NCBI GenBank assembly: GCA_963770835.1
Contig: CAVYRH010000011.1
Span: 247,753 to 311,752, forward strand
Reading direction: 5' to 3'
DNA from: an uncultured Pseudomonadota bacterium
GTDB lineage: Bacteria > Oederibacteriota > Muellerivitia > Muellerivitales > Muellerivitaceae
DNA length: 64,000 bases
Below, piece after piece: positions 57,001 to 60,000 of the stretch (within the stretch, counting starts at the first letter, position 1; the number at the start of each line of letters is the position of its first letter). The position numbers were made by a program.

Positions 57001-60000
57001 CCCCCGCAGCTTGGAAGAATATGTGGGCCAGGAACACTTGGTGGGCCCAGGCAAGCTGTTACGACGCCTCTTGGAAGCCAACCGCATCGTTTCCCTCATT
57101 CTTTACGGCCCCCCCGGCACGGGAAAAACCGCCTTTGCCCGCCTGGTGGCCCGGCGCACCAAAAGCCGCTTTGTGGCTCTAAACGCAGTTACTTCCGGTT
57201 TGGCGGATTTGCGCAAAGTCTTCGACGAGGCCATGGAAAACAAAAAGCTCTACCAACAATCCACCATTCTTTTTCTTGACGAAATCCATCATTTCAATAA
57301 AAGCCAGCAGGACGCCCTCCTTCCCCACCTGGAACAAGGCAACCTGATTTTGGTGGGCGCAACCACCCAAAACCCCTTTTTTGCCATCAACACGGCCCTA
57401 TTGTCCCGTTCCAGGGTTTGTGAACTGCGGCTTTTGGACGAAAAGGGCCTTTCCATCATCCTGGACCGGGCTCTTAAGGATAGGGAACGCGGCCTTGGGA
57501 AATACCAAGTGGATCTTACACCCGAGGCCCGCGCCCATTTGCTCAAGGCAGCCTCGGGGGATGCCCGGACGCTCTTGAATGCCCTGGAAGTGGGGATTTT
57601 AACCACACCACCCGATGAAAAAGGCCAGATCCACTTTGACTTGGAGGTTGCCCAGGAATCCATCCAAAAAAAGATGGTCCAATACGACGCTTCCGGCGAT
57701 CAGCATTACGACACCATCTCCGCCTTCATCAAAAGCATCCGGGGTTCGGACCCGGACGCGGCTCTCTATTGGCTGGCTAAGATGCTTTACGCGGGAGAGG
57801 ACCCCCGGTTTATCGCCCGACGCCTTGTCATTTCGGCTTCCGAGGACGTTGGCAATGCTGATCCCCAGGCCTTGCCCCTGGCGGTAGCGGCCCAACAGGC
57901 CCTGGAATTTATCGGCCTGCCGGAGGGACGTATCCCCTTGGCCCAGGCTACCGTCTACCTGGCCTGCGCGCCTAAAAGCAACGCTTCCTACATGGGGTTG
58001 GAATCCGCTACCGGGGATGTCCAAAAAGAGTCCATCAAGGAGGTGCCTCTCCACCTCAAGGACGCCCATTACCCGGGTTCCAAGGTTTTAGGCCATGGCG
58101 AGGGATACCAATACGCCCATGATTTTCCCGACCACTATGTGAAACAGGAGTACGCCCCAAACTTAGGGCGGTATTACTCCCCCACTAACCTGGGGTATGA
58201 GGCCAAGATCAAGGCCTGGCTGGAGCACCTGCGAGAACTGGAAAAATCCCCGAACTCGGCGGAGAAAAATAGAAAATGACCACTTCGATCCCTAACCCTC
58301 ATCCCGAAAGCAAAGCCGACCTACGGGAAAAATTAAGAAAAATACGGGACCAAGTAGACCCCGGCTTGGCCGAAACGGCTTCCCAGGGGGTTTGGGCCAT
58401 CCTCAGCCGGCTTCCAGAATTCCACAAGGCCAAGGGCATCGGAGCCTTCGCTTCGACTCCCGGCGAAATCAACACCTACCCCATCCTGGAAGGCATTTTG
58501 GGACTGGGGAAAAAGCTTTATCTTCCAAAAGTGGCGAAAGATAAAACCCATTTCGACTATTACCCTGTCCCCGACTTCAAAAACCTTTCAGCAGGCCCTT
58601 TTGGGATACTGGAACCTTCCGGCAATCACCCCGCCGGTTGGGAGGAAATTGATCTGGCCTTGGTTCCAGGTCTCGCTTTCGACCTTAAAGGGTACCGTTT
58701 GGGCTTCGGCAAGGGATTTTACGACAGGGTCCTTCCCCTTTTAAAAAAGACTGCCCTGACCGTCGGCCTGGGTTATTCCTTTCAAATCGTGGATCAAGTG
58801 CCCACCGAAGCCCACGATGTTCTTTTAAAGGCCCTCCTTACCGAAAAAGGATTTCACCTCTTCGCCAAGTAAGACCACCCCTTCGGGAATGGGTTGTGTT
58901 TCCACGGCTTTTTGTTTAATCTCTTGCACGACAACGCCATCCAAGGACATATCGTGAACATTTTGATCATCGGGGACATCATCGGGAAACCGGGCCGCCA
59001 TGCCGTGCACAATTGTCTCGGCCGGGTGAAAGCCGACTATTCCATTGATTTCACCGTCGCGAATGGCGAGAACTTGGCCGGAGGAACCGGTATCCAGCCC
59101 GATTCCTTCAAAGCCCTGATCGATACGGGGGTGGATGTGGTCACTTCGGGGAACCACATTTGGTCGAAGAAGGAAGTGAAGGAGATTTTGGGGCACGATC
59201 CCCGCCTTTTGCGCCCGCACAACTATCCGACCGAGAATCCCGGCAGTGGCCTGGGAATCTATGACTGCAAAGGAATCCCCGTTGCCGTGCTGAACCTGAT
59301 GGGCCGGGTTTTCATGTACCCCATCGACTGCCCCTTCAAAGCCGCCGACCGGGCCCTGAATGAAATCCAGGGGAAAGCCAAAGTGGTGGTGGTGGACATG
59401 CATTGCGAGGCCACCAGTGAAAAACGGGCTATGGGGTGGTACTTGAATGGCCGGGTCAGTTCGGTCACCGGAAGCCACACCCACATCATGACGGCGGATG
59501 AGGAAGTCCTGCCGGGCGGCACCGCCTACCTGACGGATATCGGCATGTCGGGTTCCCCCAACTCGGTCATCGGCATGAAACAGCCGCAGGTGCTTTCCCG
59601 CTTCCTGACGGGAGCCCCCGCCCGGTTTGAGGTCTCCGAGGAATTGCCCTACCTTTTCCAGGCTGCGGTGGTTTCCGTGGATAAGGAAACCGGCAAGGCC
59701 ACCAAAATCGAGCGTATCCGCCAGCTCGTCAATTAAACACCCGCCTTTATTCACATTAAAATCCCAATTTTATTTTGAACTTTAAAACTAATTGGATGGC
59801 GTGCTGGAGTTTGAAGGCCCTGTCGGGTTTGAGGTGGCCCCCGGGGAAGACGGCTGGGCCGATTCATCGGTGGGAGCGGGTGCCGGTTTGGGCTTTTGTT
59901 TGGAACTGCGGGCCAATTGGGCCCTAAGCTTCTTATAATAATGTTTCGCCGATTTGGTGGTCGGGTCGATCGACAGCGCCTTTTTGTAATTCATCAAGGC

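Follow-up and report, generated by a model that had tools for sequence, protein, structure and literature searches.

In the view of bacterial mRNA decay set out by Laalami, Zig and Putzer (2014, PMC3997798), no phylum is without all three of RNase E/G, RNase J and RNase Y, all combinations of these enzymes occur, and some organisms devoid of RNase E have RNase Y alone or RNase J alone. Species with none of the three are mentioned by Kaberdin et al. (PMC3071783). In the Mollicutes, as surveyed by Grosjean et al. (2014, PMC4014445), RNase J1/J2 is described in all members while RNase Y is missing in many. Viable rny mutants have been described for H. pylori (PMC7492731, PMC11821409) and for B. 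subtilis (PMC8266666), neither of which has RNase E. The H. pylori studies describe RNase J as an essential enzyme with an effect on 55% of mRNAs, and deletion of rny as having limited consequences (PMC7492731, PMC11821409). RNase J has further been reported to rescue rne-less E. coli on minimal medium via its endonuclease activity (PMC5436854) and to trail the last ribosome in many species (PMC10234816). Given that many Mollicutes and viable rny mutants are already J-only, the J-only state itself is not new. What is new in the genomes described below is the occurrence of this state in a two-membrane class with large genomes and an apparently free-living life style, whose phylum includes E-only and Y-only branches as well. 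A first-pass annotation of this DNA had presented the loss of both enzymes by a whole free-living class as a novelty, and the claim stands for a natural J-only class with large genomes while being narrowed by the precedents above.

The window, a stretch of 64,000 nucleotides (G000:C11:247753-311752), comes from a 4.58 Mb genome (G000) that is 96% complete in 26 contigs and contains frameshifts, its rpoC being in pieces. The class to which it belongs (FCPU426) comprises 32 uncultured, two-membrane genomes of 2-5 Mb, all of them metagenome assemblies; 18 are at least 90% complete, as the annotation had counted, and two are 99% complete in about 5 contigs each. They were compared with 67 relatives in a set of 99 genomes of the phylum. 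The second family of the class is represented by a single genome, G043 (97% complete, 0% contamination), and all arguments drawn from that family rest on this one genome. The two-membrane envelope is supported by lpxC and lpxD, both above cut-off in profile searches. Genome size and biosynthetic genes suggest a free-living life style, and the class encodes Rho and many regulators. An RNA run gave a small share, two 151-nt pieces at depth 2.

No RNase E/G was found with PF10150 in any of the 32 class genomes at E<=0.01, while 52 of the 67 relatives were positive. Likewise, the RNase Y profile TIGR03319 passed its cut-off in none of the 32 class genomes and in 55 of the 67 relatives, two more of which carry the gene split across contigs, and the RNase Y N-terminus (PF12072) was over cut-off in 0/32. 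The best match to TIGR03319 in the class (E 1.1e-4) fell in an unrelated 1054-aa ORF. By the same kind of search, the control genes RNase J, RNase III and YmdB were recovered in 29, 30 and 31 of the 32 class genomes, respectively, from which a miss rate of about 6% for a present gene was derived. Neither the 5 outgroup genomes nor the 10 bacterial controls included a case in which both RNase E/G and RNase Y were missing. The annotated absence of both enzymes from the class was thus reproduced in full.

The genome of the window was then searched with profiles built from 12 RNase Y and 4 RNase E/G sequences of the phylum, used whole and as 130-column pieces, and tblastn was added because of its frameshifts. 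The profiles in either form matched only KhpA, a dGTPase-like HD protein and coiled coils, and the best tblastn matches reached E 0.026 (RNase Y) and 0.51 (RNase E). By contrast, the rny of a relative, spiked into the same genome with random indels, was recovered at E 1e-61 or better. Three KH matches were over cut-off, namely PNPase, KhpA and NusA, and the five proteins with HD matches all differ from RNase Y; no protein of this genome combined KH and HD. PNPase and NusA recur among the six S1 proteins, the others being RNase R, a second RNB enzyme, a cold-shock protein and a six-S1 protein. Some labels in the KH, HD and S1 sets were assigned by eye. A 498-aa S1 protein was considered as RNase G, to which it is similar in size, and was rejected as an RNase II/R-type exonuclease. 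Weak matches to the RNase Y N-terminus were rejected as coiled coils; of three inspected, two lie in a flagellar fliG-fliH-fliI context (labels by eye).

These searches bear directly on the reading that rny or rne is present and was missed because it is diverged, broken in assembly or unbinned. Such a reading draws on the metagenomic origin of all assemblies, on the frameshifts of the window's genome and on the tendency of long profiles to overlook weak matches, but it has to contend with zero of 32 for both genes when three control genes reach 29-31, with two 99% complete genomes in few contigs, with an rny slot that is empty on contiguous DNA (see below), and with the gap between the spiked control and the real genome. 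Moreover, a co-diverged rny or rne should be visible, since the RNase J of the class is still 46-52% identical to that of relatives. We regard this reading as largely refuted and its remaining probability as very small.

The features of the window that bear on the rny slot are collected in Table 1. Its right end reads pheT, a zapB-like gene, zapA, glgP (minus), a small ORF (minus), 6S RNA, rarA, fau and ymdB, where the pheT and glgP labels were given by eye. A promoter scan placed a sigma-70-like promoter of the 6S RNA at 56636-56663, and ymdB has a GTG start with AGGA upstream. The place of rarA/mgsA between 6S RNA and fau is shared by the main family of the class; the gene is not there in G043. 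The coiled-coil tail of ZapA was considered as an RNase Y remnant and rejected, as it gave no match to RNase Y N-terminal profiles.

Table 1. Features of the window at and around the vacant rny position, with rnc and, on another contig, rnj (window coordinates unless a contig is named)
Feature	Position	Strand	Evidence
rnc, RNase III (double-strand endonuclease that is kept)	1946..2752	-	TIGR02191, 246 bits vs cut-off 166
zapA with 165-aa coiled-coil tail; upstream context of the 6S-fau block	52919..53686	+	PF05164
6S (SsrS) RNA	56673..56854	+	RF00013, 51.9 bits vs gathering 46.4
rarA/mgsA, AAA+ ATPase, between 6S RNA and fau	56939..58279	+	PF12002; synteny
fau, 5-formyltetrahydrofolate cyclo-ligase; upstream flank of slot	58276..58872	+	PF01812, E 5e-41; TIGR02727, 158 bits vs cut-off 85
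spacer of 81 nt at the rny slot	58873..58953	.	sequence; fau-rny-ymdB order of relatives
ymdB, metallophosphoesterase; downstream flank	58954..59736	+	PF13277, E 9e-102; TIGR00282 above cut-off
rnj of the window's genome (outside the window)	G000:C3 ~338307-339959		profile search

That fau abuts ymdB where relatives carry rny had been proposed on first reading, and it holds beyond the window. Neither HMM pieces nor tblastn detected an RNase Y remnant in the 81-nt fau-ymdB spacer, and the rny of relatives is about 1.55 kb long. The first recognisable gene upstream of ymdB is fau in all 30 class loci that were fetched; the fau-ymdB distance is at most 333 nt in 27 of them and about 480 nt in G051, with a transposase-like ORF (labelled by eye) lying between the two genes in G048 and a truncated junction in G059. 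Among relatives, rny lies immediately 5' of ymdB in 50 of the 52 genomes in which both were located, the other two being contig breaks, a count that leaves out 3 of the 55 rny genomes for want of a ymdB match. The full fau-rny-ymdB order is intact in G006, G011 and G015, that is, in 3 of 23 phylum rny loci examined, while fau lies some 5 kb upstream in one other locus and was not seen in the fetched DNA of the remaining 19. Judged by gene order, the class junction corresponds to fau-rny-ymdB minus rny. Relatives also share a rodA-rne-rplU order. A clean rne scar was sought in the genome of the window without success, rodA and rplU being on different contigs, and the gene that follows rodA, in the place of rne in relatives, encodes a small hydrophobic protein.

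Both sites bear on another explanation, already raised in the first-pass annotation as the alternative to RNase J, in which an unrecognised single-strand endoribonuclease from a family without a profile replaced both RNase E and RNase Y on the class stem. RNase J and RNase Y were themselves discovered as unrecognised enzymes of this sort. Loss of RNase E and RNase Y in 2-5 Mb genomes that do not show the RNA-polymerase changes of B. subtilis rny suppressors speaks for such an enzyme, as does the weak endonuclease activity described for B. subtilis RNase J in vivo (PMC8096251). However, nothing new occupies the rny slot in the 30 class loci, only the small hydrophobic protein follows rodA, the S1, KH and HD proteins of the window's genome all resemble known genes, and H. 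pylori shows that RNase J without RNase E or RNase Y can suffice. We consider the replacement improbable, and with it the idea that a fourth kind of decay-initiating endoribonuclease is hidden among the unannotated core genes of the class. Failing a new enzyme, decay in the class may be purely end-first, with decapping followed by 5'->3' degradation by RNase J, similar to that by eukaryotic Xrn1.

The three enzymes are unevenly distributed over the phylum. The class is J-only, families f8-f11 have all three enzymes (E+Y+J), and the remaining families mostly have E+Y. Exceptions are family f3, which is E-only (E in 5/5, no Y, no J, with only two genomes at least 90% complete), and families f4-f7 together with f14, which are Y-only (E in 0/14, no full-length J, Y over cut-off in 12 plus one split). 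RNase J was found in 22 of the 67 relatives (21 over cut-off, one split), more than the minimum of 16 reported earlier. An RpoB tree, based on one gene and a quick search with 24 rows and with 8 of the 23 families left out, recovered the class with a support of 100 and grouped it with f13 (E+Y) and f8-f10 (E+Y+J) at 94; f3 branches first, and f4-f6 group with E+Y families at 93. Given this placement beside E+Y(+J) families, an ancestor with E+Y+J is likely, with RNase E and RNase Y both lost on the class stem. An E+Y+J ancestor followed by three separate reductions to one enzyme would be the simplest reading of the whole pattern.

The single-copy RNase J that had been annotated in 29 of the 32 class genomes was confirmed (26 over cut-off and three partial matches), and each genome that bears it has a single RNase J-family match at E<=1e-20. 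The protein of the window's genome has 548 aa, scores 619 bits with TIGR00649 (cut-off 400), and contains PF00753, PF22505, PF07521 and PF17770, that is, MBL, beta-CASP and C-terminal RNase J domains. It matches B. subtilis J1 (PDB 3zq4) over its full length at E 5e-167, and falls below the cut-off of the Firmicutes RnjA model NF047419 (675.5 vs 820 bits). Residues H67, H69, D71, H72, H135, D157, D189, H358, H362 and H384 are invariant in 32/32 aligned RNase J rows, and the metal-binding HxHxDH, His, Asp and C-terminal His motifs are intact in an alignment that includes 3zq4. By these signatures, the RNase J of the class is an ordinary, canonical enzyme with an intact predicted active site. 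In a quick tree from which 3 of 41 rows were skipped, the class sequences form one clade with a support of 100; at placement supports of 87-92, either vertical descent or transfer may account for its origin. The lgt-rluA-rnj-ftsK order is kept in G043, and rnj-ftsK is found also in five f9 loci.

Apart from RNase J, the window's genome encodes RNase III, PNPase, RNase R and YicC, all above cut-off, as well as a second RNB enzyme, an Rnm-like PHP protein and YbeY. A blank in a motif scan had suggested that RNase III is missing, which the family search rejected by finding it in 30 of the 32 class genomes. Since the same scan missed YbeY, which is present in 4/4 class genomes tested, nothing can be concluded from its failure to report Hfq, CsrA and RNase PH. 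The RNase III of the main family carries a conserved, family-specific N-terminal extension of about 25 aa in alignments. Nudix proteins were found in all 32 class genomes, with 3-7 in each, and the five class Nudix proteins with listed matches all score below RppH cut-offs.

Proteins with a narrower distribution were examined as substitutes or partners. A LabA-type NYN protein is present in 29 of the 32 class genomes versus 7 of the 67 relatives, and in the main family it is strongly conserved with its acidic motifs kept. The annotation had named this protein as a candidate substitute; its enrichment in the class was upheld, but a class-wide role was rejected because J-only G043 has no NYN, its AKR-Nudix operon being followed on contiguous DNA by lexA and not, as in the main family, by NYN. 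NYN lies behind genes for an aldo-keto reductase (AKR) and a NudE/F-like hydrolase. For bacterial LabA-type NYN proteins, no nuclease function had been demonstrated in a 2017 survey (PMC5499597). YicC is present in 27 of the 32 class genomes and was rejected as a universal candidate, as it is missing from G067, G068 and G070, which are 98-99% complete. Rae1 was over cut-off in none of four class genomes. A DEAD-box helicase was found in 29 of the 32, as one copy in 28, and was not found with this query in G043, G047 and G059; the only one of the window's genome has a long Arg/Gly-rich tail. A single glycine-rich RRM protein occurs in 23 of the 32 class genomes, its gene lying immediately upstream of rnj in 21 of the 23, and has a conserved C-terminal GNR(W). 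It was disfavoured as a dedicated RNase J adaptor by the RW/RY end that is common among its homologues, by the terminator-like hairpin between the RRM gene and rnj in 16 of 19 loci (the same hairpin type occurs elsewhere in the genome), and by its absence from five class genomes of at least 90% completeness. RNase J, RNase III, YbeY and Nudix proteins were the only ones encountered in both families and in nearly all genomes tested.

These inventories raise the possibility that the start of decay is shared by minor endonucleases, namely RNase III, YbeY, YicC/YloC and the LabA-type NYN of the main family, and that RNase J chiefly removes their products. The wide retention of RNase III, YbeY, YicC and NYN in the class, the high conservation and acidic motifs of NYN, and the extra conserved segment on the main-family RNase III would all fit such an arrangement. 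However, RNase III and YbeY are retained also by relatives that have RNase E or RNase Y, YicC is missing from three nearly complete genomes, NYN is missing at the contiguous G043 locus, and the neighbours of NYN are not RNA-decay genes. We judge shared initiation to be unlikely.

We favour instead, as the probable explanation, that RNase J alone starts bulk mRNA decay in the class. It would act mainly from deprotected 5' ends, make some cuts internally and be assisted by RNase III. The rescue of rne-less E. coli, the H. pylori findings and the movement of RNase J behind the last ribosome, all cited above, speak for this explanation. By analogy with RNase J enzymes that have been studied, a Nudix enzyme would likely convert the 5' triphosphate to a monophosphate, after which RNase J would degrade the transcript 5'->3' behind the last ribosome with occasional internal cuts, structured RNAs would be opened by RNase III, and 3' ends would be cleared by PNPase and RNase R. 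The single DEAD-box helicase is a probable partner of RNase J in the main family, in the manner of the H. pylori minimal degradosome. No RNase J partner would be needed class-wide. No other candidate is universal, given that NYN, YicC, the DEAD-box helicase and the RRM protein are each missing from some genomes. With respect to the earlier proposal that either a single RNase J or an unrecognised endonuclease starts decay, the losses of RNase E and RNase Y and the single RNase J on which it was built hold, and of its two branches the first is the one that we consider probable. The class keeps the wild-type residue at all three positions of the B. subtilis rny suppressors, the equivalents of RpoC G45 and R88 and a residue, placed by a motif, that we take to be the equivalent of RpoB G1054. 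The RpoC positions were mapped via the 43-residue spacing given with the suppressors (PMC8266666). Evidence from B. subtilis weighs against RNase J acting alone, in that RNase Y is described as performing more than 85% of one tested in vivo cleavage (PMC8096251) and rny mutants as being sick and gaining RNA-polymerase suppressors (PMC8266666).

The literature searched contained neither a free-living J-only class nor any account of RNA decay in FCPU426, although supplementary tables may list such genomes; as far as we found in the sources at hand, the J-only state has been described so far only for reduced parasites and laboratory mutants. For bulk mRNA turnover by RNase J without RNase E or RNase Y, the only known examples are reduced parasites and mutants that are sick or adapted to a niche, and the class offers a clean natural case, with one RNase J in genomes of 2-5 Mb that also encode Rho and many regulators. 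A phylum with J-only, E-only, Y-only and mixed lineages is also a ready comparison for the interchangeability of the three enzymes. The RNase J of the class would be a good candidate for the complementation of B. subtilis and E. coli laboratory mutants, and the class core genome represents a small search space for a new endonuclease.

Compared with the systems described so far, the class obeys the rule of keeping at least one enzyme of the E/J/Y toolkit as outlined in PMC3997798. Within the one phylum studied here, J-only, E-only, Y-only, E+Y and E+Y+J lineages occur side by side. Mollicutes without RNase Y or RNase E, which according to PMC4014445 also are without Hfq, resemble the class in having RNase J as the sole decay initiator of the three. 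They differ, in the same account, in being wall-less parasites with genomes of about 1 Mb that encode two J paralogues and often lack PNPase; the class, unlike them, has 2-5 Mb, the lipid A genes lpxC/lpxD, one RNase J, and PNPase plus RNase R. The RNase J + RhpA minimal degradosome of H. pylori, as described in PMC7492731 and PMC11821409, belongs to a two-membrane bacterium that lacks RNase E and has a single RNase J and a single DEAD-box protein. At the level of genes alone, the class has the same set, with one RNase J and one DEAD-box helicase (29/32 genomes) and no RNase E. However, H. pylori keeps a non-essential RNase Y (PMC7492731, PMC11821409) and the class has none, the class RNase J is without the long N-terminal extension (548 aa vs 705 in PDB 8cgl), and G043 differs further in that no DEAD-box helicase was found with this query. 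B. subtilis RnjA (PDB 3zq4) is of the same family as the class RNase J and has the same metal and phosphate-pocket residues. The B. subtilis rny deletion mutant amounts to a laboratory J-only cell, which is described as sick and in need of RNA-polymerase suppressors (PMC8266666); by contrast, the class appears to be a natural and old J-only lineage, with wild-type RNA-polymerase positions and no J2.

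Profile searches for RNase E/G, RNase Y and RNase J found RNase E as the only one of these enzymes in family f3 (five genomes) and RNase Y as the only one in families f4-f7 and f14 (14 genomes), all relatives outside the class; these are sister lineages reduced to one enzyme. Within the class, the leanest decay set is that of G043, a genome of the second family (2.0 Mb, 97% complete), in which a search of the whole genome gave no match for RNase E, RNase Y, NYN, RRM, Rae1 or a DEAD-box helicase.

Features noted in the class (G000, genome holding the window; C, contig; L, inspected locus)
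Feature	Position	Strand	Remarks
rnj block	G000:C3:336695-339959 (L021)		Conserved; AurF/ferritin-like gene, glycine-rich RRM gene, terminator-like hairpin, rnj
rnc (RNase III)	window 1946-2752	minus	L234-L240, L243-L254
miaA-Nudix junction	G000:C11:142500-145500		L311, L312, L314 (G000 and relatives)
zapA	window 52919-53686		165-aa coiled-coil C-terminal tail
Hydrophobic ORF, 93 aa	window 56209-56490	minus	Divergent from 6S RNA
rpoC N-terminus	L318-L321, L336		Residue before beta' zipper glycine
rpoC of G000	C11:52290-56300 (L318)		
Two 136-aa ORFs	G000:C3:63828-64235; C3:394188-394595		Same contig

Sequence comparison of class loci revealed that main-family RNase III possesses a conserved N-terminal addition of about 25 aa, in which a short hydrophobic stretch is followed by a Lys/Arg cluster, together with a C-terminal tail conserved in most; G043 RNase III has neither. 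The hydrophobic moment of the N-terminal extension is unremarkable, a value reached by 22% of predicted N-termini, so that anchoring to the membrane can be no more than conjecture. As for RNase J, the terminator-like hairpin sits only about 30 nt from the rnj start in many loci, so that, judging from this arrangement, rnj may be made at a low level by read-through past the hairpin.

We consider two conserved Nudix proteins to be candidates for RppH. The gene of the first lies directly 3' of miaA in G000, G043 and G054, in a slot that holds hfq in many bacteria, and this type is also present in G068; the gene of the second is located after rplM-rpsI.

The fau-ymdB gap contains a transposase-like ORF in one class genome (G048:C6, L089), and in another (G059:C62, L110) fau and ymdB are apparently truncated, with their remaining parts joined. 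Among upstream neighbours, the long ZapA tail is present in most main-family loci extending that far, and the hydrophobic ORF beside 6S RNA, an ORF that matches no Pfam family, is kept in many class genomes. Elsewhere in G000, the two 136-aa ORFs, probably a duplicated element, gave identical scores and match ranges in the RNase Y/E profile search.

The rpoC of G000 is fragmented into roughly eight reading frames, which points to local indel errors of this assembly and not to a real pseudogene. The residue just before the beta' zipper glycine is Asn in 5/5 class RpoC proteins and Asp or Glu in 14/14 phylum relatives, a contrast that could be due to chance. The glycine itself is equivalent to G45 of B. 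subtilis RpoC, described in PMC8266666 as a suppressor site of rny loss.
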